The notes: generated by a model not told the origin, from the letters alone. 51,186 nt of DNA from a virus (IMGVR_UViG_3300002461_000224:1-51186), one strand, 5' to 3'; numbered from the stretch's first letter, positions 2,850 through 15,619 are shown. Numbers and translations are program-made.

Positions 2850-3343
2850 AGCTCGCCATCTGATCCAGTGGTGACCGTTGCTAGGGCTTGGAATTTCTCC
2901 TTCGCGATCTTCCATCGTTCGTCCTCCTTGGCTTGATCTTCCGGGTAGAGCTTGAAGAGAACGGGGCGAGAGGGCCACACGTCGCCGTCGAAAACGTTCC
3001 AGTGACCGTTCGGCCACTCGCCCCAATAGGAACCATCGTGGATGCCAGTGCTGCCGGGTTCGATCACCTTGAAGTGGCTGCCGTCCTTCGGGCAGTACGA
3101 CGGATCTCTCCAGCCCAGTTCTGTAAGCCGCTGGTGGGCATCCCACATGGCGCGGATTGCCGACTGTTCGTCAGGCATTCTTTCGGCCCGCGATGCCTTC
3201 TCGGCCATCGCGGATTCCCACATGGCGTTTGCTTCGGCCCGGCTAAGAGGCTCATGCCGCATTTTAGGAAAGCCGGTCTCCGGACATATCTCGCCCGTGT
3301 CAAACGTCTTATGACCCACGATATCATCCGGTCTGTCACTCAT
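2846..3343 (-). CDS. Hypothetical phage protein, 165 aa
   Basis: GGAGGAG RBS, coupled stop/start; YCPKDGS motif. Confidence 0.8.
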   Translation of the reverse strand: MSDRPDDIVGHKTFDTGEICPETGFPKMRHEPLSRAEANAMWESAMAEKASRAERMPDEQSAIRAMWDAHQRLTELGWRDPSYCPKDGSHFKVIEPGSTGIHDGSYWGEWPNGHWNVFDGDVWPSRPVLFKLYPEDQAKEDERWKIAKEKFQALATVTTGSDGEL

Positions 3344-3561
3344 TACCGCTCCTCCTGCGTTCCAACGTCATGGCTGGCCTTAGTAGCGCGACCGAGTTTT
3401 GTCAGGCGTGCCCACTCCGGGTCTCGCTTGCGAAGCATTCCAAGCTTACGCAAACGCGGGATTACGCTCCGGTAATGAGGCTTCAGCCAGTTAACCGGCA
3501 TCGGCCCGTCGCAGCTTCGGAGCATGTCGAGCACTCGATGTTCAGCGCGGGAGAGGATCAT
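3343..3561 (-). CDS. Small winged-helix-like protein
   Basis: LSRAEHRVLDML...LRKLGML...ARLTKLGR. Confidence 0.55.
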   Translation of the reverse strand: MILSRAEHRVLDMLRSCDGPMPVNWLKPHYRSVIPRLRKLGMLRKRDPEWARLTKLGRATKASHDVGTQEER

Positions 3562-3757
3562 GGCTGGCCTTAGTTACGGGTTGGGGGGACGGAGGAAGAG
3601 AGAACTTGTACTCGTACCATTCCTCGAAATCAGTCACGTAGGCCCCGCAGTTGCGAAGGTCGCCATCCCGCTGGCCGAAAATGATGGTCCCGCCTTTAAC
3701 GCAGATAACAGTGCGGTCGCCGACCTCATCGCCGGCTTGGGGGTGACGTTCGCTCAT
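3542..3757 (-). CDS. Hypothetical protein, 71 aa
   Basis: RBS and coupled start. Confidence 0.6.
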   Translation of the reverse strand: MSERHPQAGDEVGDRTVICVKGGTIIFGQRDGDLRNCGAYVTDFEEWYEYKFSLPPSPQPVTKASHDPLPR

Positions 3758-4329
3758 GACTGCTCCTCCCCCGCCAAGCGCGAGGTTTCGGCCTGGTCCT
3801 GCTTCCAGTCGGGAGCGGTCTGCGTGGTTCGTACTGGTCCAGCAATCGTGTTGTTCCAGAGGTGGTGCAGGGCGGCCCAGCTATCTGGGTACAGCCTCAA
3901 TGCCTCGTGGAAGGCTAAGTTGAGCCGCTCCCATTCCGCCTCCGCGTCGGCCGTGCTCGGTATCGCCAGGGTTGCCAATTCCTTCGCCCGCTCGTCTGCG
4001 ATCTTGAGCGCACGAATCTTGGTGGCGATTATTGCGCACTGGTCGCGCCTGGCTGCGAAGAAGTTTCCGGCGGCGATCGGTGCCGTGCCCTCGGCGATCT
4101 TCGCGCACGCCTCTATGGTTACGGAATCGAGGCGCTCGTCCGCTACAGCATCGCTGGCAGTGGTGAGGGCACGGCGGTTCCAATCAGCCACAGTGTTGGC
4201 GCCCAGCTTCTTGCCCTCGCACCCGTCAGTTACGCAGCGGACCATTGCGGGAGGCCCGACCTTGGAGCCCGGCGGCTTCTTACAGAGCGGGCACGGCAGG
4301 AGGTCAGTAGAAATGCTGTGATCCGTCAT
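3754..4329 (-). CDS. Lar-family-like Zn-ribbon domain protein
   Basis: LLPCPLCK...VRCVTDGC...WNRR. Confidence 0.6.
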   Translation of the reverse strand: MTDHSISTDLLPCPLCKKPPGSKVGPPAMVRCVTDGCEGKKLGANTVADWNRRALTTASDAVADERLDSVTIEACAKIAEGTAPIAAGNFFAARRDQCAIIATKIRALKIADERAKELATLAIPSTADAEAEWERLNLAFHEALRLYPDSWAALHHLWNNTIAGPVRTTQTAPDWKQDQAETSRLAGEEQS

Positions 4330-4445
4330 AGCCCGCAGCTCCCGTAGTTCTGTATGCACCCCAAGACCTGAGCGCAGCCGGCCATGCCGACAATGATTAA
4401 GAAGAAAAGGGCGATCACCCCGCCCAGCTTGTCCAGGCGCATCAT
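4326..4445 (-). CDS. Putative small lipoprotein, 39 aa, absent from ORF track
   Basis: MMRLDKLGGVIALFFLIIVGMAGCAQ: hydrophobic stretch then AGC; coupled on both sides. Confidence 0.55.
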   Translation of the reverse strand: MMRLDKLGGVIALFFLIIVGMAGCAQVLGCIQNYGSCGL

Positions 4446-4561
4446 TTGCTCCCGCTGACAGGGCGCGACTTAACCTTTTCGATCAGCCATTGTATGGGCG
4501 CGACGATCAACACTGCGACGATTGATAGAGCGATGCGCAGGATCAGCATGAATGCGGTCAT
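4442..4561 (-). CDS. Small single-TM peptide, 39 aa
   Basis: MTAFMLILRIALSIVAVLIVAPIQWLIEK; TGATG coupling. Confidence 0.55.
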   Translation of the reverse strand: MTAFMLILRIALSIVAVLIVAPIQWLIEKVKSRPVSGSK

Positions 4562-5136
4562 CAGGAATCTCCCGGCTTGGCGAGGGCGGCGAGGCCCTCC
4601 GGCTGCTCTCGCCAGCAAAAGCTGCCGCACCAGTCATGTGGCGCAACGGCAGGCCACCCCCAAATAAGGCTTTCATCCCTAACGCGACTTACCTCTGTGG
4701 CAGTGGCCTTAAATTTCCTTGGCAGGCGAACAGGAGGCGCGATGTGACACTCGCCGTTGAGCAGAAAGCGACAGCGCAGGCATGATTGCGTCGTGTTGTT
4801 GTTCAGCGCCTCCACCACCTGCGGAGTGCTAGGCGGTGGGGCGGCGTAGGAGGCCCACTCAGCAACAGTGCTGGCGGCAAGCTTCTTGCCCTCGCACCCG
4901 TCAGTTACACAGCGGACCATCTCAGGCGGGCCCACCCTGGAACCCGGCGGATTCTTGCAAAGTGGGCACGGGCTAAACCCGACCGGCGCAGCGGACTGGG
5001 CGGCGAGGGCTTCACGCACTCGGATAGCCGCCACTTCAGTCGTGACGTATCCATGCTTTGCAACAATATAGTCGAGTTCCTGAAGCGCAAATTCCAGCGC
5101 CTTCATCTGATCCGACATCTGCGATTCCTTGGTCAT
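4561..5136 (-). CDS. Hypothetical protein with Lar-like Zn ribbon and a second Cys motif
   Basis: PCPLCK...RCVTDGC plus CLRCRF...CH...WCG. Confidence 0.7.
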   Translation of the reverse strand: MTKESQMSDQMKALEFALQELDYIVAKHGYVTTEVAAIRVREALAAQSAAPVGFSPCPLCKNPPGSRVGPPEMVRCVTDGCEGKKLAASTVAEWASYAAPPPSTPQVVEALNNNTTQSCLRCRFLLNGECHIAPPVRLPRKFKATATEVSRVRDESLIWGWPAVAPHDWCGSFCWREQPEGLAALAKPGDS

Positions 5137-6683: not shown

Positions 6684-6859
6684 GACGGTACTCCGCACTT
6701 TCCACAGCCATGCAGCCACTCGTTGGCGATCTTGCGAGAAGTCCAGCCTTCGCGCTTCGCTTCGGCCCAAGCGTCACTAAAATCATCTGTGCCCGGCTCG
6801 AATAACTCGGGACAGGAATCACACTCGAAAATCAGTTTCCCGTGCTGGCGATCAATCAT
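6680..6859 (-). CDS. Small Zn-ribbon protein
   Basis: CDSC...AKREGW...CGKC. Confidence 0.7.
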   Translation of the reverse strand: MIDRQHGKLIFECDSCPELFEPGTDDFSDAWAEAKREGWTSRKIANEWLHGCGKCGVPS

Positions 6860-7641
6860 CACGAAATCTCCCTGATAGCCGCGTCGCAGTCGTCCTTGGT
6901 GATCTCGCCCCGCAGGCGCCGCTCTGTGAGCCTGTAGACGGCCTTCATCCACGCCTGCTCGTCGGCATTGGCTTTCCCGCCAATCAACTGCAGGGCCTCC
7001 GCGTGCCTTCCCGTGAGGCTCTTGGGCCTATCGGTGACGCGCGCCATGGCCCGCAGGTACGTGTCCTGCCAATCAGGCGATAAGTCAGAGGGCAGGCCAG
7101 CGGGGCTGGCATCGCTGGCCTGCGCCTCTTCGTCGGCCGAGGATGGCGCCGACGGTTCGGAAATATCGCCCGCGGCCTCTACCGGGGGAATGTCGTCAGA
7201 GGCCGCGGGTTTATCCGCCTGAGACCCTTGTCGGGGGGACTGTTCGGTCTCGGGCGAATTGGAATCTTTGAACACGACGCCATGGCTGGCGCCGAAAGCA
7301 TGAATGAGTTCGATCAGGTCCGACATTTCGGACTTGGAGAGGTCCGACGATGACCGGCCCAGGTTGACGAAGCCGGTCCCGTCGATGTTGGGGACGACGC
7401 GGAGTTCCCGCTTGAGCGCGTCGAGGAAGATGAACTTCCATGCATCGGGGGTGAGATTCATCCCGTGCCACGGGACTTGCGCGGCTACCTCCGTCAACAT
7501 GGCCCAGAGCTTGTCGTTCTGTTCGCTGCTGCGCTTGGGTTGCTTGAACTCCACGCGCATCCCGGCCTTTGCCGCCATGCACCAGCGGGCCGCTTTCTCG
7601 CGGTCGGTCTGTCCGTTGATGGTGACGACGTAGCGGCTCAT
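6859..7641 (-). CDS. ninB: NinB/YbcN-family recombination protein with C-terminal extension
   Basis: KRSSEQNDKLWAMLTEVA, WK, SSSDLSKSEMSDLIELIHAFGA. Confidence 0.85.
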   Translation of the reverse strand: MSRYVVTINGQTDREKAARWCMAAKAGMRVEFKQPKRSSEQNDKLWAMLTEVAAQVPWHGMNLTPDAWKFIFLDALKRELRVVPNIDGTGFVNLGRSSSDLSKSEMSDLIELIHAFGASHGVVFKDSNSPETEQSPRQGSQADKPAASDDIPPVEAAGDISEPSAPSSADEEAQASDASPAGLPSDLSPDWQDTYLRAMARVTDRPKSLTGRHAEALQLIGGKANADEQAWMKAVYRLTERRLRGEITKDDCDAAIREIS

Positions 7642-8267
7642 GCTGCGATCTGCCTCTCGTATTGCGCCTTGAGGTCGGAGACCTTGCGGTCCAGTTCGGC
7701 GAGAAATTCGGAAACCTGCTTCTCCAGGTCGGCGATCATGGCGTTGTCGCGGTGGACCCTCGCGACGAACAGGCTCATGGATTCCGGCATGCGCGGATCG
7801 AACGAAACGTAGTCGCACCACGCGCGCCCGGTCGAGGCTAACTGCCACTGGATCTGGGTGATGTATTTGCCGGGCACGGCGCGGCCCAGCAGCGTCTCGA
7901 TGTGCGTCGCTGTGTTGGGGCACTTGATCTCGACAAGCCCCTCAGCGGCCACGAGACCGTCGGGAGATGCCCCGCTATCGGCGATCCTCGGGTGAGGGAC
8001 AAAGCCGACCTGTTCCACCGTCGCGTCCGTCCGAAATTCGTAGGCGGCGCGTGCGTTCGGTTCCTGGTCCGTGCCCCACTGCATCTCCTTGCTGGTGAAG
8101 GACTCGGCAACCTCGCCGGTCAGCCGCTCGCATACGAGCTGGGCCATATAGTTGGCGCGCGAAGCCGACGGGCCGGTTTTCGTCTTGGCGATGACGTCGG
8201 CGACGCGGGAGGCAGTGACCTTGCCCGAGCGCTCCGCAAACCATTCTGGTGAGCCCTGTTCGATCAT
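7638..8267 (-). CDS. YqaJ/lambda-type exonuclease
   Basis: QGSPEWF, TAS, GASPDG, EIKCP, QIQWQL. Confidence 0.93.
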   Translation of the reverse strand: MIEQGSPEWFAERSGKVTASRVADVIAKTKTGPSASRANYMAQLVCERLTGEVAESFTSKEMQWGTDQEPNARAAYEFRTDATVEQVGFVPHPRIADSGASPDGLVAAEGLVEIKCPNTATHIETLLGRAVPGKYITQIQWQLASTGRAWCDYVSFDPRMPESMSLFVARVHRDNAMIADLEKQVSEFLAELDRKVSDLKAQYERQIAA

Positions 8268-9049
8268 TGCGCTTGACCCTTCTTGGCGTTCAAAGCGTCG
8301 ATGGCGCGCTGATAGGACTTGGCCGGGATGTCGGCGATGGTCTCGGTTTTCATGTAGCCGCAGAAGCGCCCGAGATTGGTTCCAGTGTCCGCGATCAGCT
8401 TTTCGATGGCTGCGACCTGTTCCGCGGTGACAAAGCCGCCGTTCTCGCCCACGCCGGCGGCCTTTGCGTCGTCATCGTTGGACGCGGCGAGGCCGAGCGC
8501 GGCCTTGAGGGTCATCCGCTGCAGATAGGTCAGCGTCGAACCGACCGCCTGGATGCTGTTCTTGTTGCCGCTCTCATCCCGGCCGGCGCAGAGGGTGTTT
8601 TCCTCGAAATGGCCGTCGCGGTGCGACACGATGCAGGTCACGGTCACCGGCTCGTTGACCGCCGAAGTGGTGCGGAACCGATAGGAGAGGCCGTACCTGG
8701 CAAGGATCGGCGTCACCGTCTTGGCGACCTCCGCCAGATCCTCATAGCGGTAGTTCGTGCGGCCCTTCGATGAAGTGAAGTCGACCGCGCGGTTCTTGAT
8801 GATCGTCGGGATTTCCGCCTTGGCCGACGCCATGGCGTTGTCGAACGCCTTGCGGGCCATGTTCTTTTCCCACCGCTCCTGCAGCCCCATGAGCTTTTCC
8901 AGCACGTCCATGTCGGCGCCGGACTCGACCGCCCGGTTGAGCATGTCCATCGGCGTCATCGGCACTACCGTCGGCGCCCGCTGTTCCTCGATCTTGGCAA
9001 CCTGGTTCACTTGGATCTCCCCTTCGATTGTTTGCGGTGCGGCTTTCAT
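8264..9049 (-). CDS. erf: ERF-family single-strand annealing protein
   Basis: YRYEDL, GLSYRF, QAVGSTLTYLQRMTL...DDDA; GGAGG RBS before ATG 9049. Confidence 0.9.
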   Translation of the reverse strand: MKAAPQTIEGEIQVNQVAKIEEQRAPTVVPMTPMDMLNRAVESGADMDVLEKLMGLQERWEKNMARKAFDNAMASAKAEIPTIIKNRAVDFTSSKGRTNYRYEDLAEVAKTVTPILARYGLSYRFRTTSAVNEPVTVTCIVSHRDGHFEENTLCAGRDESGNKNSIQAVGSTLTYLQRMTLKAALGLAASNDDDAKAAGVGENGGFVTAEQVAAIEKLIADTGTNLGRFCGYMKTETIADIPAKSYQRAIDALNAKKGQAQ

Positions 9050-9309
9050 CGCGGCCTCCGGTTGATATGCGTCAGCGTGGTTCTGGTGATGACGTCCGCC
9101 ATTGCCTTGATCTGCTAGGCGATCTTGGAAATGTCCTCGGATGCAAGCTTCTGCTGCACGGCGGACCCGGTGGTGTTGCCCTGCTTGAGGCTGCGGACCT
9201 TGTCGACGAGCTGCTGCAGGCTCAGTTCGACCTCGCTCACGGCGAACGAAACGCCGGTAAAGAAAGTCGGCTCTTGCGCTGCGGGCTGCTTTGCGGGGGC
9301 GGAGGTCAT
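9046..9309 (-). pseudogene. 87-codon ORF interrupted by an in-frame TAG at 9115-9117
   Basis: Frame continues 22 sense codons past the TAG to a TGA overlapping the erf ATG. Confidence 0.5.
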
Positions 9310-9593
9310 ACCGGGGCTCCAGTGATTTCTTCCAGAGGGGCGATTGCCGGGCCAATAAGCACGGCTGGTGCGTCATTCGGTTTGGTTGGCGCCACACCCA
9401 GCGCGGCGAGATAAGCCCGCGTGAGATGGTCATATGAACTGGCGCGGCCTCGCAGCTTCTCCCCGGAGTCCTCGTCCTTCTCGATCATCCGGCGCGTGTC
9501 GTCCGGCCCGAGCTGGGCGCGGTAAACGCGCTCGCTCAGATCGCGGATGAAGTCGGGGTCAAAGCCGTTGCGGGGGCCTTTGGGGAAGCTCAT
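9306..9593 (-). CDS. Hypothetical protein, 95 aa
   Basis: Coupled ORF. Confidence 0.65.
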   Translation of the reverse strand: MSFPKGPRNGFDPDFIRDLSERVYRAQLGPDDTRRMIEKDEDSGEKLRGRASSYDHLTRAYLAALGVAPTKPNDAPAVLIGPAIAPLEEITGAPV

Positions 9594-10021
9594 GCGGCGA
9601 CCCTTTCCCGCTGATGCTTGGCGTGATCGAACATGGCCTCGATGGTTTCAAAGCCCTCGTTGTCCAGATGCTGCGCCATGTGCCACCACTGGCCTTCGCC
9701 AGCCGGGACGCCTGCGCTGGAGTTCGGGTACTCGCCCGGCCGTAGCGGCGGCATCGCGTCGTGGTGCGCGCGGACCATTGCCTGCATTGAATTGAAGAAA
9801 GCGGCCTGCCAGCGATCATCCTGCGCGTAGAACATCTGCGCCATTTGCTCGGGCGTGATGTTCTCCGGCTTGTTCATGACCCATGCGGAGAGTTGCTTCT
9901 GCATGGCGGTGACGCGGCTCAGGGCATCCCCGTAGGATTGCGCGAGCTGCATCACGGCGCGGCTGCCGGCCTGTCGCTGGGCTTCTACGGCGGCTTCCAT
10001 TGTCTTGCGGAGAACGAACAT
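9590..10021 (-). CDS. Hypothetical protein, 143 aa
   Basis: Coupled ORF with phage-like codon usage. Confidence 0.75.
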   Translation of the reverse strand: MFVLRKTMEAAVEAQRQAGSRAVMQLAQSYGDALSRVTAMQKQLSAWVMNKPENITPEQMAQMFYAQDDRWQAAFFNSMQAMVRAHHDAMPPLRPGEYPNSSAGVPAGEGQWWHMAQHLDNEGFETIEAMFDHAKHQRERVAA

Positions 10022-10095
10022 CAGATCAAAATCCCAATCAAAAACGATCCAAGAAGGGTAACGATCAGGCTGAGGTACACGTCGCTGCTACACAT
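10021..10095 (-). CDS. 24-aa hydrophobic peptide
   Basis: MCSSDVYLSLIVTLLGSFLIGILI fills the gap exactly; TGATG coupling downstream. Confidence 0.45.
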   Translation of the reverse strand: MCSSDVYLSLIVTLLGSFLIGILI

Positions 10096-10097
10096 CC

Positions 10098-10310
10098 TCA
10101 AAACTCCAGGTTGGCGAAATCCAGTTCCTTCGCCGGCAGGAGCGGCGCGTCCTCCGCAACCGCGTCTCCGACTTGGCGGAGGTCGTCTTCCTGCTCGTGG
10201 TCCGCGATGATTTCCTCGAGGACTTGCATCCGGCGTTGTGTCGGCAGCAGCCACAAAAGGGGCCAGTGCTGCTGGATGATCTCGGAATGCCGCTTGGCGG
10301 TGAGTGGCAT
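10098..10310 (-). CDS. Hypothetical protein, 70 aa
   Basis: ATG 10310 just after upstream stop. Confidence 0.6.
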   Translation of the reverse strand: MPLTAKRHSEIIQQHWPLLWLLPTQRRMQVLEEIIADHEQEDDLRQVGDAVAEDAPLLPAKELDFANLEF

Positions 10311-10312
10311 GG

Positions 10313-10642
10313 CTAATCCCTGTCGTCGTATTCGTATTCGGGGTAGTAGTCGTGATCCTGGCCGCAAATCTCTTGGTAGATGTCGTCGTCATTGCTCAGG
10401 ATCGTGACCAGCCAGTCCGGCGCCGCGAAATAGTTCTCAGCCTTCGCCGTCTTGTGGTCGGCATCGGTCGTGTTGATCTCGACCTTCACAAACTCGATCT
10501 CGGCGGGCTCGGCCGGGTGGCCCTCGTAAGACAGTGAGCCGTAATGGGCGGGGCTACCTGCGCTGAACGTGTACTCGGCGAAGACCAACACGACCTTTGA
10601 GCCGATCTGGAAGTCTGTTTCGTAGAAGTGGGTTGCTGGCAT
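10313..10642 (-). CDS. Acidic hypothetical protein
   Basis: GGAG RBS; HPAEPAEIEF motif. Confidence 0.75.
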   Translation of the reverse strand: MPATHFYETDFQIGSKVVLVFAEYTFSAGSPAHYGSLSYEGHPAEPAEIEFVKVEINTTDADHKTAKAENYFAAPDWLVTILSNDDDIYQEICGQDHDYYPEYEYDDRD

Positions 10643-10647
10643 CGCCG

Positions 10648-11058
10648 CTACTCCGCCGGCTGGTAGGTGATGACGTTCTCGGAAAGCCGCTTCATCGTGT
10701 CCAAGAGCGGGTTGAGGTAATCCAGGTCGATACCTTCATCCTTCCCCGCGTCAATCAGGTTGCCGAGCTTGCCCATGAAGTGATGGAGTTTGGCGTCGCT
10801 GGCGCTAGGAAGATCCTTGATGAATGAGACCGCCTTGGCGTGCGCGGCGTCGAACGTTTCGCCGCTGAAAACCTCGCACTCCGTCTCCCAGTCGTTGTTG
10901 GAGTAGGGCTTCCTCCAGCTCATGTAGATGGAAAGCCCGGCGTTAGCGTTGATCATCACAATGACCTCAGGACGCGACTTGCCCTTTTCGGAGAGTAGCG
11001 CCGGCAATGGATTGATTGCGGCGTAGATGTCGTTGATCGTTGTCATGTTGGTCATCAC
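10648..11058 (-). CDS. Hypothetical protein, 136 aa
   Basis: Coupled ORF. Confidence 0.75.
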   Translation of the reverse strand: MMTNMTTINDIYAAINPLPALLSEKGKSRPEVIVMINANAGLSIYMSWRKPYSNNDWETECEVFSGETFDAAHAKAVSFIKDLPSASDAKLHHFMGKLGNLIDAGKDEGIDLDYLNPLLDTMKRLSENVITYQPAE

Positions 11059-11309
11059 TGTGCCTCGTGCTTGCGATAATCGCGGGCGTGGTCGATCTGG
11101 AAGTCGGATCTGTTAGACTTCTCCTCCTCCTCGGTGTTGCTGATCGCCTCGACCAGATCGGCAATCGCAGCGAGGCGCGTGTGGCCGTAACCACGAATGC
11201 GGCCCTCGTCCTCGTCGTCCCGGTAAGCGCCGAACTCACCGTTCGGGCAGAGGCCGGTGATCACGCGGCAGTCGTTGGCCGGAAAATAGTGCGTCCTGAT
11301 CTGTTCCAT
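11055..11309 (-). CDS. Hypothetical protein (cassette 6)
   Basis: Repeat-borne GGGAGA RBS; GYGHTRLAAIADL. Confidence 0.75.
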   Translation of the reverse strand: MEQIRTHYFPANDCRVITGLCPNGEFGAYRDDEDEGRIRGYGHTRLAAIADLVEAISNTEEEEKSNRSDFQIDHARDYRKHEAQ

Positions 11310-11341
11310 CTGTCTCTCCCGTTTCGACTGTTCGTTAGCTC

Positions 11342-11665
11342 TCAGGCGGCCTGCATGATCGCAATGCGGATCGTTTCGCTGTCGTAGCCCTCACTCGCCA
11401 ACTGGCGGCGAAACTCGCTCGGCTCAATCTCGCCGGCCTCAAGCAGATCGCACATGTATTCGAGGGTTTCGTCGTTCTGGTCGCCTTCGTCTTCGGGCTC
11501 GTTCAGATCGAAGATGTAGCGACCGTAATCGTTGTCCTCGGGGTCAGTCCCCGGCACGAGCCAAAAACCTTCGCCCGCGCGGAAGCGGTCATAGTTGGTC
11601 CAGCCGTTGTAGATTGCGGCGTGGTAGTACTCGTGGAACGCTCCGTCGAAATACAGAATGAACAT
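11342..11665 (-). CDS. Highly acidic hypothetical protein (cassette 5)
   Basis: Exactly bounded by repeats; D/E-rich. Confidence 0.8.
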   Translation of the reverse strand: MFILYFDGAFHEYYHAAIYNGWTNYDRFRAGEGFWLVPGTDPEDNDYGRYIFDLNEPEDEGDQNDETLEYMCDLLEAGEIEPSEFRRQLASEGYDSETIRIAIMQAA

Positions 11666-11700
11666 TTGTGGGGTCTCCCGTTTCGACTGTTCGTTAGCGG

Positions 11701-11895
11701 TTAGGCGGGCTTGCTCTTGCGGTCGCGCATCCAGTGCTTAGCCTCTTCCAGCTTGGTTGCAGCCAGCGAATAGCTGCGATGGCGCCCAAGCTCCTCGACC
11801 CGCAGGACAAGCCGCGAAATATCGATCATGATGTCGTCGATTGCGTCATCGTGTTCGGGTGTAAGGCCGTTGTTGAAGGTCATTGCGTCGCTCAT
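11701..11895 (-). CDS. Acb2/Tad1-like signalling-nucleotide sponge (cassette 4)
   Basis: RSYSLAATKLEEAKHW matches the RxxSLAxTKLEEAxxW helical-hairpin motif. Confidence 0.6.
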   Translation of the reverse strand: MSDAMTFNNGLTPEHDDAIDDIMIDISRLVLRVEELGRHRSYSLAATKLEEAKHWMRDRKSKPA

Positions 11896-11949
11896 TTCAC
11901 TCTCCCGTTTCGTTAGCTAGAGAAGGTTTTTGCCGCTTCTTTTGCCGGT

Positions 11950-12618
11950 TCAGGCAGCGATCTCGGTGAGTTCCAGCCACTGGACGCCAGGCACATTCAT
12001 CTCGATCAAAATCTGCACGACGCCTTCAGCGAAATCTGATAAGATTTTGTCTCGAGCGTAGGCGTAGGCGTAGGCGGAGGCGGAGGCGGAGGCGGAGGCG
12101 GAGGCGTAGGCGTAGGCGTAGGCGGAGGCGTCGGCGGAGGCGTCGGCGGCTCTTGCAATCTTCTTCGCGTGCTCGGCCGCCTCTCGGTTCGGAGAGGCTT
12201 CGCAGCGGCTGGCCGCATCGCGCAGCGCCTGAACATGCTTGGGGTCTTTGTGGACCGAAGCGGCGGCGCGCAGCGCAATCGGAACACTGGTACGACACGC
12301 GAGGTCGGCCAGCTTCATTGCGAACTGCTTTTGATCCAGGGCGCCCTTGCTGCCGAGCTGGATTACGGCGAGACGGCGCAGGCCCTTGGCTCGCGCGGCA
12401 TTCGATGACCACGCGGAATCGTTGAGCCGGATTTTCAGCGAGCGCAGGACGGGATCAACGCACTGAGGATCGTCGCCGTGCGGCAGGCCGAGTGCGTAAC
12501 AAACGGCGGCCTCAACGCACATCTGGCCGGGGATTGGCTTTCCCATGCCGTTGACCAATCCGGCGTCAACGACGTCGAGAAGCTTGGTAACAACGTCCTT
12601 GGTGATTTCGATCTGCAT
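11950..12618 (-). CDS. Hypothetical protein with Ala-X dipeptide repeat tract (cassette 3)
   Basis: ATG 12618 follows repeat RBS; MCVEAAVCYALG...HGDDPQCV. Confidence 0.85.
   Translation of the reverse strand: MQIEITKDVVTKLLDVVDAGLVNGMGKPIPGQMCVEAAVCYALGLPHGDDPQCVDPVLRSLKIRLNDSAWSSNAARAKGLRRLAVIQLGSKGALDQKQFAMKLADLACRTSVPIALRAAASVHKDPKHVQALRDAASRCEASPNREAAEHAKKIARAADASADASAYAYAYASASASASASAYAYAYARDKILSDFAEGVVQILIEMNVPGVQWLELTEIAA
12056..12150 (-). repeat. In-frame hexamer tandem repeat GCCTAC/GCCTCC/GCCGAC
   Basis: About 15 units encoding ADASADASAYAYAYASASASASASAYAYAYA. Confidence 0.95.
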
Positions 12619-12685
12619 TGGTGTCTCTCCCGTTTCGTTAGCTAGAGAAGGGTTTTGCCGCTTCTTTTGCCGTTTCGACTGTTCG

Positions 12686-12904
12686 TTAGCGGAGGTGGAG
12701 ATATTCGGAGCGAACAAACTCTTCGCTCAGGTCGTGCAGCCACTTCACCAGAACGAGCGGGTTGGCTTCGGTCACGTCCGCAATGGCGCGGGTGACACCA
12801 ACCGCATTGCGGCCAAGCTCGGGGTTCCATGTCGTGACGAAGTTGCCGGGCGCGAACTGTTGCGCGGCGGTGGAAACGTAGGGCTGGAGGGCTTCGTTGG
12901 TCAT
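12686..12904 (-). CDS. Hypothetical protein (cassette 2)
   Basis: Bounded by repeats; stop lies inside module B. Confidence 0.7.
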   Translation of the reverse strand: MTNEALQPYVSTAAQQFAPGNFVTTWNPELGRNAVGVTRAIADVTEANPLVLVKWLHDLSEEFVRSEYLHLR

Positions 12905-12960
12905 CTTCGGTCTCCCGTTAGCTAGAGAAGGGTTTTGCCGCTTCTTTTGCCGGTTCAGAT

Positions 12961-13161
12961 TCAGGCGGCGACGCGGAAGTTGCTCTCATGAACACAGAGC
13001 TTGCCGCCGCCTGCGAACTTGACGATGTGCCAGCCTTCGCGAAGGGGTCCGCTGACCTTGGTCCAGCGCGCAATGGTCGCCGTCTCGTTGCGGCCCTGCG
13101 GGTGAGACACGAAGAACTCGATCCGGGTTCCGGTCTTTAAGGACTGCTTGGTCTTGGTCAT
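12961..13161 (-). CDS. Small basic SH3-like protein (cassette 1, first gene after PL)
   Basis: GGGGGA RBS; beta-rich pattern. Confidence 0.7.
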   Translation of the reverse strand: MTKTKQSLKTGTRIEFFVSHPQGRNETATIARWTKVSGPLREGWHIVKFAGGGKLCVHESNFRVAA

Positions 13162-13196
13162 TTGGTAAGTCCCCCGTGTTCGTTCTGATGGGGGTA

Positions 13197-13237
13197 GTTA
13201 TAGTTCAACAATAATTATAGTTCAAGCGGAAATATGG
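13197..13237 (-). promoter_or_regulatory. PL/OL leftward promoter-operator
   Basis: TTGAAC (13225-13220), N17, TATAAC (13202-13197); TATAGTTCAA direct repeat. Confidence 0.85.
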
Positions 13238-13273
13238 GTGGACCGTAAAATATTTTTAGCCTAGAAAGATGGC

Positions 13274-14122
13274 ATGACCGAAGTGCCATACATGAACCTG
13301 TACGTCGGGGACTATCTCGGCGACACCCAGCACCTGACGACCGAACAGCATGGGGCCTATTTGCTGCTCCTGATGGCCATGTGGCGGGCGGGCGGCAGTC
13401 TCCCGAATGACCCGGCCAAGCTCGCTCGGATCGCGCGCGTGAACCCTCGGAGATGGCGGTTGATTAGCCCCGAGGTGGTCGCATTCATGACAGTCGATGG
13501 GGATCAAATCACCCAATCGAGGCTCAAACGGGAGCACCAAAAAGTGGCTTCGATACGGGAGTTACGGAGCGCCAGCGGGAAGGCCGGAGTTTTGGCTAAG
13601 GCATTGAAAACAAAAGAACCGGCTCAAGCAAATGGTAGCCGTTTGCTTAAGCAAAATGGCAGCATACCAAAACCATACCCAGAACCAGATAAGAAGAAGG
13701 AGATAGATATATCTCCACCAGACTCGATTTTTGAGCCAGCCAGAACCCAGCTTGCATTGGTCCCCGCGGCTACGAAGATGCCGGCGAAGGAAGAGAACCA
13801 AGACTTCGAACAATGGTGGAAACAGTACCCTCGGAGAGTGGACAAGGGTTCCGCTCGGAAAGCCTATGAACGGGTCGTCAAGGCTGGGAAGGCCACCGCC
13901 GAACAATTGATAGCTGGGGCTATGCGCTATGCCGCCGAGCGGCAGCACGAAGATCCGAAATACACGAAACACGCCTCCACCTGGCTAAATGCTGAGGCAT
14001 GGGGCAACGAAACAGCACCATCCCTAGCGGCTGGCGGGAATCAAAATCGAGCCCCACAAAGCCGTGCTGATTCGGCGATTGAGGGGATGATGTCCTATTT
14101 CAACGAAAGAGAGCGACAATGA
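13274..14122 (+). CDS. DUF1376/YdaU-family replication initiator (O-like)
   Basis: YVGDYLGDTQHLTTEQHGAYLLLL, FEQWWKQYP, HASTWLN. Confidence 0.88.
   Translation: MTEVPYMNLYVGDYLGDTQHLTTEQHGAYLLLLMAMWRAGGSLPNDPAKLARIARVNPRRWRLISPEVVAFMTVDGDQITQSRLKREHQKVASIRELRSASGKAGVLAKALKTKEPAQANGSRLLKQNGSIPKPYPEPDKKKEIDISPPDSIFEPARTQLALVPAATKMPAKEENQDFEQWWKQYPRRVDKGSARKAYERVVKAGKATAEQLIAGAMRYAAERQHEDPKYTKHASTWLNAEAWGNETAPSLAAGGNQNRAPQSRADSAIEGMMSYFNERERQ
13593..13700. other. Putative replication origin inside the initiator gene
   Basis: AAGCAAATGGTAGC (13626-13639), AAGCAAAATGGCAGC (13649-13663), palindrome TTTGCTTAAGCAAA, then an A-rich tract. Confidence 0.5.
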
Positions 14123-14673
14123 GCAATCTGGTTGTTTCCGGCAATGGATCCGCGATTTCGAAGGTCATGGCGACCACGGAAGAAATCAAACGGCTGACGC
14201 TCATGGTGCTGGAGGCGGAGCGCTCCGGGCTGGCGGCGCAAAAGTCGGCGGCGGAGGCGGTACGGCCCCTGTTGGCGGCGAGCGCGGCAGTCGAGCAATC
14301 CCTCGACCAGTCACTCCGACAGGCCACCGAACAGGAAATAGGGGCGTATCTGGCGCTCTTGCTCAAGGCGTACCCGAACATGGGGAAAGACGACGCTTCC
14401 GCATTCGGGCGCCTATTGCTGGAGGACGTGATCGACCTCAAGCCCAGTATCGGCGGGATCGAGGCCGGATGCCGCGCCGTGCGGCAAACTTGCAAGTTCC
14501 TGCCGGCCATTTCCGAGGTGCTGGAGGCCGTCCGCAATGCGGATAGGTCGCTGCGTGGTTCGGTAGAGCGGCTTCGGTTGCTGCCGGGCTTTGTCGAGAA
14601 GTTGGATGCCCAAATCCAGGAAGGCGAGCTGGCACTGCAGCGCAAAGCAGATCGGAAACTGTCCGCGGTCTAG
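14119..14673 (+). CDS. G39P-like helicase loader/inhibitor
   Basis: Follows initiator; LLKAYPN and KFLPAISEV motifs. Confidence 0.6.
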   Translation: MSNLVVSGNGSAISKVMATTEEIKRLTLMVLEAERSGLAAQKSAAEAVRPLLAASAAVEQSLDQSLRQATEQEIGAYLALLLKAYPNMGKDDASAFGRLLLEDVIDLKPSIGGIEAGCRAVRQTCKFLPAISEVLEAVRNADRSLRGSVERLRLLPGFVEKLDAQIQEGELALQRKADRKLSAV

Positions 14674-15080
14674 CCGTTGGTCCCGGTCTTCCCGACGATG
14701 GTCTGCGCGATCTCGGCAATCATCCTGCGCTGCGTATCGCTCGCCCGGCCGATAATTGACATCAGGCCTTCGCCTTCCTCGAGCGGGTTGACCTCCAAAA
14801 GCCACCCCGGGCTTGTTTTGTAGACGTCGGCGAGTGCCTGTAGGCCGGCCGGCGTGTAGCCTTGCTCGCCCCGCTCCATCGTCGAAATGTTGCCAGCGGT
14901 CATCCCAGAGGCTGTGGCGACCTCTTCAAGCGTCATGTCGCCGCGATATTTGCGCCATTGCCGGAAGAACTGCCGAGGGGGACGAATCACCGTCTTGAAC
15001 CTGGTTCGCACCATGTCCTTGCCGGGCGATTTGGGTTTCTGGAGCGGGGTTGTTTTTCTAGCCATGCTATAATCTAGCAT
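14670..15080 (-). CDS. cI: CI-like XRE/HTH repressor lacking a peptidase domain
   Basis: RQWRKYR.DMTLEEVA...ISTMERG...LADVYKTSPGWLL; divergent from cro; start uncertain. Confidence 0.85.
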   Translation of the reverse strand: MLDYSMARKTTPLQKPKSPGKDMVRTRFKTVIRPPRQFFRQWRKYRGDMTLEEVATASGMTAGNISTMERGEQGYTPAGLQALADVYKTSPGWLLEVNPLEEGEGLMSIIGRASDTQRRMIAEIAQTIVGKTGTNG

Positions 15081-15108
15081 CGGGGCTCCAATTGACCACA
15101 GAGTTCCA

Positions 15109-15149
15109 CCATATTTCCGGTTGAACTATAATTATTGTTCTGCTATACG
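15109..15149 (+). promoter_or_regulatory. PR/OR rightward promoter-operator
   Basis: TTGAAC (15121-15126), N17, TATACG (15144-15149); 30/31 inverted match to OL. Confidence 0.85.
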
Positions 15150-15155
15150 CGAGGA

Positions 15156-15377
15156 ATGAAACTCGCAGAATGGCTCGCGCTTCCAAACCCGGATGGCTCC
15201 AGAAAACGCCGCTACGCTTTTGCGTCGGCGATTGGTGTCACACCGATCATGATTACCGCTTATTGCGAAGGGAACACTTGGCCCGGTCGGGACAAGATGG
15301 AAGCCATCGTTCGCGAGACAGGCGGCGCGGTCACCGCGAATGACTTCATCGACATGAAGCAAAGCGGGGCCGCCTAA
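15156..15377 (+). CDS. cro: Cro-like repressor
   Basis: MKLAEWL...FASAIGVT...TGGAVTANDF; ATG 6 nt after the -10, probably leaderless. Confidence 0.88.
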   Translation: MKLAEWLALPNPDGSRKRRYAFASAIGVTPIMITAYCEGNTWPGRDKMEAIVRETGGAVTANDFIDMKQSGAA

Positions 15378-15619
15378 TGCGCCAGCGCGTGCCCGCTCCA
15401 GACGCCAACGGTTACCGATCGATCGGCCAGCACCCTGGTCGTCTCGGCATTCCCTTGGACTGCACCTGCGAGGGACACCGCCAAATTCAACGTCGCGCCG
15501 CCTTGCATGATGAAGCCGATGCAGCGGAGTACGCCGTTGACTTTCCGATAGGCCCCGAACCCATCGCAGTAGACCAGCGGCAGTACCTGGGCCTGCTCGA
15601 GCAGTTCTTCGTCTGTCAT
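15374..15619 (-). CDS. Antisense hypothetical protein, 81 aa
   Basis: GGGGGAG RBS before ATG 15619; stop overlaps cro stop. Confidence 0.6.
   Translation of the reverse strand: MTDEELLEQAQVLPLVYCDGFGAYRKVNGVLRCIGFIMQGGATLNLAVSLAGAVQGNAETTRVLADRSVTVGVWSGHALAH

Follow-up and report, generated by a model that had tools for sequence, protein, structure and literature searches.

Reused intergenic modules as probable swap points for gene cassettes in the early operon of a P22-like temperate phage

The IMG/VR virus record IMGVR_UViG_3300002461_000224, taken here in full as the window (the whole stretch of DNA that was analysed, 51,186 nucleotides (nt), estimated to be 90% complete), is that of a P22-like temperate phage. 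Its leftward early operon opens with an array of six small minus-strand genes, g1 to g6 (13161 to 11055), which are joined by two reused non-coding modules, A and B. It is probably at these modules that gene cassettes are swapped, because related metagenome phages carry other genes between the same modules. Turnover of cassettes at the modules is seen directly at the level of assembled contigs, and we infer for them both a recombination mechanism and a translational role. The reading we favour, with fair but by no means full confidence, is that the modules serve as portable leaders for translation initiation and, at the same time, as short patches of homology through which cassettes are exchanged. 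An earlier note, made from the sequence alone, had proposed a plug-and-play anti-defence array reshuffled by recombination at the repeats; the reshuffling is borne out by module reuse, a deletion and replacements, but the anti-defence cargo is barely supported.

All six genes have an ATG start and lie downstream of a PL-like promoter (Table 1), and they are unrelated to one another, with no blastp match among their proteins at E<0.1. The five gaps between them are filled by the two modules, which follow one another as A, B+A, A, B, B; within the window, these repeats are restricted to the array. The 37-nt core of module A is present in three copies with 0-1 mismatch (0 matches in 100 shuffles), and the 21-nt core of module B (21-25 nt) in three copies with 0 mismatches (shuffle mean 0.01). 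Each gap runs from a stop codon to the ribosome site of the next gene: ACGGGAGA closes every gap 5-8 nt ahead of the ATG (5/5 gaps, one strand), and five of its six occurrences in the window are these gap ends. The heptamer GCTAACG, common to both modules, has six of its seven window occurrences inside the gaps. Likewise, six of the seven occurrences of CGGCAAAA make up three tandem pairs in module A, which Tandem Repeats Finder reported three times with a period of 12 and 2.0 copies. Elsewhere in the operon, junctions judged from coordinates of open reading frames (ORFs) mostly overlap or are no more than 5 nt apart. The earlier reader's observation of this layout is thus confirmed, with one refinement: according to the alignments, module B equals the 3' end of A plus eight extra letters, and in gap 2 the 5' part of B is fused with A at the ACGG/CCGG that they have in common. 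A and B thus belong effectively to a single leader family, whose optional 5' extension holds the tandem CGGCAAAA.

Natural variants of the array were found in public sequencing runs. Part of 10900-13300 is present in 20 runs from 9 studies, and at least half of the sampled words in only 3; no RNA run is listed among them. Contigs of four runs (X1, X2, X4 and X7; four studies) were placed on 10000-14200, and parts of the array that lack contig cover in X2, X4 and X7 were counted only if a contig joins across them. An 819-nt contig of X7 leads from g1 through one hybrid A to g4, g5 and into g6; its joint, from 11910 to 12916, lies within A copies and skips 1005 nt (g2, gap 2 and g3), with 16 letters ambiguous. 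In X4, a contig of 3808 nt follows the window over 10098-11702, continues with 465 other letters in place of 11703-12697, removing g4, gap 3, g3 and gap 2, and then returns to it over 12698-12926; on the left, similarity resumes at 11702, exactly at the stop codon before the module B of gap 4. A second X4 contig has 509 other letters for the body of g1, between the leader (13155-13192) and the end of g1 with its module A. This contig is also divergent upstream of 13192, so that the leader is retained although the sequence on both sides of it differs. Each of the two cassette replacements has a module or the leader at one or both of its edges. Gene content between the repeats therefore differs among relatives, as the earlier note's proposal implied, through the X7 deletion joining two A copies and the X4 replacements of g1 and of g4 to g3.

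The PL leader itself does contain the degenerate B stretch that the earlier note reported there, although its similarity to B in the alignment is weak. Loose contig ends lead into modules and then into still other sequences, and two such ends in X1 match flanks of L039, the contig described in the next paragraph. A contig of X2 holds the five letters (AAACG) that gap 1 of the window lacks, and one of the 40 substitutions listed for the four runs falls in a gap. The body of g3 (~12000-12620) is covered in X1 only, among the four runs. A separate X1 contig, ~25 times as deep as the phage contigs, agrees with part of g3 (12397-12537) but for two differences, which points to an abundant relative of g3 in that sample.

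The modules also flank other genes elsewhere. The metagenome contig L039 (10,980 nt) carries a full A at 820-876, a B at 1084-1112 and a truncated A at 1480-1506, which separate ORFs of 67, 69, 118 and 81 amino acids (aa), none of them similar to g1-g8. The truncated A is without its 3' half and still stands ahead of an ORF. In the alignment, identity between L039 and the window spans the region from the stop codon to the ATG and ends at the ATG. Eight of the 12 blastn matches between the two are module copies, the top three included (92-98% over 51-66 nt), and NinB, at 65% amino-acid identity, is the only gene clearly common to both; these two phages, very different in other respects, therefore have their most conserved DNA in this non-coding leader. 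Upstream of the L039 array, the first gene that can be seen (1-573) encodes pentapeptide repeats fused to DUF5758 (Pfam 9.7e-33 and 7.5e-22).

The derivation of B from the 3' end of A plus 8 nt, together with the B/A fusion in gap 2, would also be explained if the modules were functionless relics of serial tandem duplication of one intergenic region, with exchange at them no commoner than elsewhere, and the narrowness of the family (0 module matches in IMG/VR for four module strings) fits this as well. Neutral relics are, however, expected to diverge, whereas L039 has identical modules and only NinB in common with the window; moreover, the joints and replacements in the four runs sit at modules. 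We regard such an origin as distinctly improbable.

Searches of larger collections delimit the family further. Exact IMG/VR scans, which may leave out records near the window's own genome, returned 24 stretches for a 19-mer of the A core, 0/24 of them module-like and all unrelated coding sequence, and no match for the B 21-mer, the leader 28-mer or the A 3' 20-mer. A gapped A pattern had no match in a collection of one genome per species (185,579 species), and the metagenome scan found two stretches, L039 and L040; the latter was rejected as a module carrier, since it fits the search pattern and nothing else. Among 401 host-family genomes an A 23-mer with up to 3 mismatches matched 22, none of which continues as a module, and the reversed control matched more often; the B 25-mer matched 0 of 151 host-family genomes. 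Among GenBank phages a 3-kb query found one record, which matches g8 only.

Six of these 22 weak A 23-mer matches (L046, L050, L052, L057, L058 and L059; at about position 1500, in L057 at 630) lie upstream of one homologous gene, which encodes a Fic domain in L050 (Pfam 4.7e-15). In five of these six loci, AAGCGGCAA(A/T) units with a 12-bp period stand on both sides of an AT-rich promoter-like stretch, and in L059 one tandem pair stands just downstream of it. The likeness of AAGCGGCAA to the CGGCAAAA tandem of module A could be due to chance, because the query is itself a tandem repeat, or to a DNA-binding factor of the host group.

The modules were also examined for signals of their own. A promoter and terminator scan based on an E. 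coli-type consensus, covering 9000-15500, found 0 sigma-70-like promoter sites where 1.7 are expected (alphaproteobacterial or phage-specific promoter types lie outside the scan), and no terminator-like site inside any module. By reading, no TTGAC-like hexamer stands 16-18 nt upstream of the only TA-rich hexamer of the modules. RNA folding of eight gaps (five in the window, three in L039) was no better than that of shuffles (z -0.20 to +0.81), the modules hold no inverted repeat beyond a 6-bp palindrome, and Rfam gave 0 matches against them. The earlier suggestion that the modules may be antitermination elements finds no backing, as they contain neither a boxB-like hairpin nor a boxA-like match: the window has five boxA matches at 3 mismatches to the consensus, 0 of them in modules, with 4.5 expected by chance. 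A lambda-type nut site (boxA plus boxB) was rejected on these grounds.

These results bear on a strict interpretation after the promoter early stem-loop (PeSL) motifs of T4-type phages, in which each module would carry its own early promoter and terminator or attenuator and each cassette would be a separate transcription unit. The layout is as in the T4-type hyperplastic regions, with motif-flanked ORFans and insertions or deletions at the motifs between relatives, in the sections of the published account used here (PMC2839356). The absence of sigma-70-like sites in the scanned region, of a terminator-like site in the modules, of a suitably spaced TTGAC-like hexamer and of folding beyond that of shuffles makes this interpretation very improbable.

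The earlier note had seen no dedicated recombinase. This holds for site-specific enzymes: searches with PF00589 (tyrosine recombinase) and PF00239 (serine recombinase) gave 0 matches in the ~90% complete record, and in the PF00589 search the control genomes all scored. It does not hold for recombination genes in general, as the array operon itself encodes ERF, a YqaJ exonuclease and NinB (Table 1), a general recombination set able to use short homology, as well as an HNH protein. De Paepe et al. (2014, PMC3945230) quote a minimum of 23-27 bp for pairing by Red-beta and of 31-34 bp for RecA, and describe Rad52-like phage recombinases, an Erf included, as better than RecA on short, diverged homology. 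Module A (37-55 nt identical) is longer than both minima, and module B (25-29 nt) is longer than that of Red-beta only. On this basis we infer that ERF, YqaJ and NinB act on the modules.

The succession of repeat, gene and repeat resembles an integron array, and modules common to otherwise unrelated phages might suggest integron-like site-specific cassettes, or a small non-autonomous mobile element or host repeat between genes, of the miniature inverted-repeat transposable element or repetitive extragenic palindrome type. With no tyrosine or serine recombinase in the ~90% complete record, no attC-like or terminal inverted repeats, all copies co-oriented with transcription and in register with start codons, and no module in the host-family genomes or the one-per-species collection, we consider this extremely improbable.

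The genes of the array gave few database leads. Pfam, PHROGs and NCBIfam returned nothing above threshold for g1, g2, g3, g5 and g6. The strongly acidic cassette that had been noted is g5 (isoelectric point 4.05; 25 D/E of 107 residues), which had no usable match in the ESM Atlas. The cassette with a variable repeat is g3, in which a 12-nt unit repeated 7.8 times (12056-12149) codes for an A/S/Y/D linker of differing length in an alignment of 40 relatives. The g3 protein is all-alpha, with a conserved four-Cys N-terminal domain, this hypervariable linker and a conserved C-terminal helix. It has 1645 homologues, and its model (predicted local distance difference test score, pLDDT, 82.4) gave no fold match and its sequence no match in the PDB; the nearest named ESM Atlas cluster, Imm5_like at 0.82, is a lead only.

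The earlier assignment of one cassette to the Acb2/Tad1 anti-defence type concerns g4 and is barely supported. Its match to Pfam PF24729 (Acb2/Tad1 hairpin; E 2e-5) scores 25.1 bits, below the cut-off of 27, and 7 of its 78 homologues have a precomputed match to that family. The g4 model is a confident two-helix hairpin (pLDDT 91.6), for which Foldseek found no match at E<=0.001, Tad1 chains ranking 5-22 at E 3.4-4.7 and Vs.4 ranking 48. A profile search against the PDB gave six matches, five of them to Tad1, at a non-significant E of ~0.6, and the rest of the Tad1 chain is absent from g4. The predicted likeness to Acb2/Tad1 is thus a lead and not a membership. From their position, a counter-defence role of the cassettes is plausible.

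Homologues of the cassette genes occur in other phages with no module beside them. In IMG/VR, modules accompany 0 of 6 g4 homologue loci and 0 of 80 g3 homologue loci (the best 80 of 188), one of which, L070, also has a g2 homologue. This g2 homologue (81% identical) lies downstream of the g3 homologue, in an order opposite to that of the window, tightly packed and without modules. As g3 and g4 homologues are never module-flanked, the cassette genes appear to travel widely, and the modules to be a device of one narrow lineage.

We can now set out how the favoured portable leaders would work. The start of the leftward early operon would be built from ORFan cassettes, each joined by a standard intergenic module that leads from a stop codon through an unstructured A-rich leader to ACGGGAGA and, 5-8 nt on, an ATG. 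Any gene placed behind a module would thereby obtain a working translation start within the PL transcript. As the copies are near-identical and 25-55 nt long, they could serve as homology patches and preferred crossover points at which ERF, YqaJ and NinB, or the host RecA, would recombine module copies within one genome or between co-infecting phages or prophages. Cassettes would in this way be deleted, inserted or replaced with the neighbouring genes left intact, and repeated exchange would keep the module copies identical.

Several points weigh against this reading. The module family is narrow, being known from one further contig (L039) plus the placed runs. Homologues of g2, g3 and g4 occur in other phages without any module, so the modules are not needed for moving or expressing these genes. 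The variants were seen in assembled contigs, not reads, and since A is longer than the assembler's 31-mer, contigs may break or, rarely, mis-join at A. The right edge of the 465-nt replacement in X4, at 12698, falls within the 3' end of g2, 8 nt beyond B, and X2 has a replacement (11028-11063) at the g6/g7 junction, where there is no module. Lastly, selection for a binding function could be what keeps 37 nt perfectly identical between copies and between phages. Among the assembled contigs of the four runs, no back-joining joint, the sign of a mini-circle, was listed.

The identity of the copies leads to a rather unlikely alternative, in which the modules are primarily regulatory sites bound as DNA or mRNA by a phage or host factor, their identity is maintained by selection and cassettes turn over only incidentally. 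Such a factor might repress or activate translation of early genes, or form a roadblock in the manner of an operator. A 37-nt core that is identical or differs by 1 mismatch in the three window copies and L039, a tandem CGGCAAAA with a 12-bp period within it, and copies that share one orientation and a fixed position ahead of the start codon would all suit such a site, and start-associated sequences (SAS) and extended start-associated sequences (ESAS) of Cluster K phages are discussed in similar terms in the part of the source used (PMC3203893). Yet the B copies lack the tandem and the truncated A of L039 lacks the 3' half, and each nevertheless precedes an ORF; there is no hairpin and no known RNA family, no candidate binding protein was identified and the first gene, g1, is replaced in X4, and the same genes occur module-free in other phages. 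In a further reading, which we consider quite improbable, the modules would be more than passive homology, and a dedicated, integrase-free exchange system of temperate phages would use a phage or host factor that reads the tandem CGGCAAAA, in DNA or leader RNA, and stimulates ERF exchange or co-regulates translation; if true, the array would be a fast-evolving counter-defence 'integron' behind PL, common to unrelated phages of one host group.

The window encodes a P22-type portal and coat protein, a large terminase, DnaB, a Toprim primase and a GcrA-like protein. The host is probably of Bradyrhizobium/Afipia type, judging from relatives of g8, a gene further along the operon, in Bradyrhizobium phage ppBeUSDA76-2 and a contig of an Afipia metagenome-assembled genome. 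The g8 DNA is 80% identical to that of ppBeUSDA76-2, and the g8 protein is 86-91% identical in seven IMG/VR contigs, ppBeUSDA76-2 and the Afipia contig, with a range of 84-91% over nine other contigs. In the seven IMG/VR loci and ppBeUSDA76-2, 0/8 have modules and 0/8 have g1-g7. The neighbours of g8 in the other contigs are entirely different. As a single gene, g8 is widely traded. For the DUF1376 replication protein, no relative locus was found in IMG/VR.

The label PL given earlier to the promoter of the array is plausible from the promoter-like site at 13197-13225 and from a 31-nt repeat near the repressor and cro-like gene pair. A second copy of the 31-nt promoter stretch (13207-13237), 96.8% identical, is found at 15109-15139, between the helix-turn-helix repressor gene and the cro-like gene. 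The shared stretch spans the -35 hexamer and spacer of the leftward array promoter and is also in the rightward promoter of the cro-like gene, and its presence at both promoters suggests a common operator for the repressor. The consensus scan missed the PL-like site because its rule demands T at position 6 of the second hexamer.

Table 1. Coordinates of the array, its gaps and other early-region features, counted from the first letter of the window.
Feature	Coordinates	Strand	Description
g1	12961-13161	minus	66 aa, basic, isoelectric point 10.6, no family
g2	12686-12904	minus	72 aa, no family
g3	11950-12618	minus	222 aa
g4	11701-11895	minus	64 aa, two-helix hairpin
g5	11342-11665	minus	107 aa, strongly acidic, no family
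g6	11055-11309	minus	84 aa, acidic, no family; last module-preceded gene, overlaps start of next ORF
Gap 1	12905-12960	minus	module A, 37-nt core 12916-12952; without AAACG before GGGAGA
Gap 2	12619-12685	minus	5' part of B (12670-12690, overlaps g2 stop) fused to A (12636-12672)
Gap 3	11896-11949	minus	module A (11911-11947, 1 mismatch)
Gap 4	11666-11700	minus	module B (25-mer 11674-11698)
Gap 5	11310-11341	minus	module B (25-mer 11315-11339)
Leader	13162..13192	minus	weak B-like stretch and ribosome site of g1; acts as third portable junction
PL-like promoter/operator	13193..13240	minus	TTGAAC 13220-13225, 17-nt spacer, TATAAC 13197-13202
Helix-turn-helix repressor gene	14670-15080	minus	faces cro-like gene
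g8	10313-10642		109-aa acidic ORF of the operon
General recombination genes	6859..9433	minus	same operon; true start codons uncertain
ERF	8264-9433 (ORF)	minus	Pfam 1.7e-21
YqaJ exonuclease	7638-8267	minus	Pfam 3.7e-30
NinB	6859-7923 (ORF)	minus	Pfam 1.5e-33

Two further repeats were observed elsewhere in the window. The operon has a second reused junction of 40 nt (2475-2514 and 3334-3373, minus strand, 98% identical), which comprises the last codons of an ORF (both ...HDVGTQEER), a GGAGGAG ribosome site and the ATG of the next ORF; a shorter related stretch occurs at ~3558-3573 and 3366-3381. This suggests that junction reuse extends beyond the A/B array. The adjacent ORFs 3754-4359 and 4561-5136 have in common a 117-nt Cys-rich segment (4180-4296 and 4855-4971, minus strand, 85% identical) of the form CPLCK..PPGS..MVRCVTDGCEGKKL, to which L039 6195-6394 is 84-94% identical. 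A Pfam search placed the ORF pair in no family, and the segment may resemble Lar-type restriction-alleviation zinc ribbons.

Linker sequences are a concept of the modular theory of phage evolution. Among known systems, the PeSL cassettes of T4-type phages come closest, and Comeau et al. reportedly also wrote on them in 2014. Arbiol et al. (2010, PMC2839356) describe a plastic early region in which ORFans have short, conserved motifs on either side, between the genes; the crossovers of insertions, deletions and replacements between close relatives fall inside the motifs, and no dedicated recombinase is involved, general phage recombination at <50 bp of homology being invoked. The modules follow the same pattern, with crossovers inside the motif at ORFan deletions and replacements in the X7 joint, the X4 replacements and the L039 cassettes. 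PeSL mini-circles are shown in T4-type phages, and the authors themselves draw the integron analogy (PMC2839356). In the same paper, however, PeSLs are defined by a strong sigma-70-like promoter and a stem-loop terminator; the modules have neither. What they carry is a leader with a ribosome site, and they lie within a single operon of a P22-like temperate phage.

The SAS, in the part of Pope et al. (2011, PMC3203893) used here, are asymmetric conserved sequences with a Shine-Dalgarno core a few nt before the start codon, mostly linked to ATG, in one orientation, ahead of non-structural genes that belong to different families, and they do not occur in the host genome; their role in translation initiation is proposed there and unproven. 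The array shares this layout (Shine-Dalgarno core 3-7 bp before the start), with ACGGGAGA so placed in 5/5 gaps, although its letters differ from the published 13-mer. On that account, the SAS are 13 bp of another sequence at ~15-20 sites over half the genome, and the ESAS add 17-bp imperfect inverted repeats (PMC3203893), whereas the modules are 25-55 nt long, hold a direct tandem repeat and no such inverted repeats, are packed as five copies in one array and come with direct evidence of cassette turnover.

Mosaic borders of lambdoid phages are comparable in that temperate phages which have otherwise diverged can exchange DNA by homology at short stretches conserved at gene borders; the traces described by De Paepe et al. 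(2014, PMC3945230) are, however, diffuse raised identity in flanking genes, whereas the modules are discrete, non-coding and reused, five times. Integrons likewise have promoterless cassettes in one orientation behind a common promoter with repeated sites between them, but the array is without an IntI-type integrase and attC-type imperfect inverted repeats, and its repeats hold the ribosome site of the next gene. Our literature searches returned no account of the array, or of modules like these from P22-like phages or phages of alphaproteobacteria.

Exchange at conserved linkers in temperate phages is an old idea for which clean natural examples are few, and the best prior example, the PeSLs, comes from virulent T4-type phages and concerns promoter-terminator motifs. 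Here, a compact array stands in a lambdoid-style early operon, the linker is a leader with a ribosome site, the transcript also carries recombination genes, and it is precisely at the linkers that several natural variants differ. Since the array is compact and has natural linker variants, simple constructs can test the homology need of Erf, the effect of the leader on translation and the formation of circles. The array also marks phage-traded ORFans, including g3 with a family of more than 1600 members, which are reasonable candidates for host-takeover and counter-defence screens.

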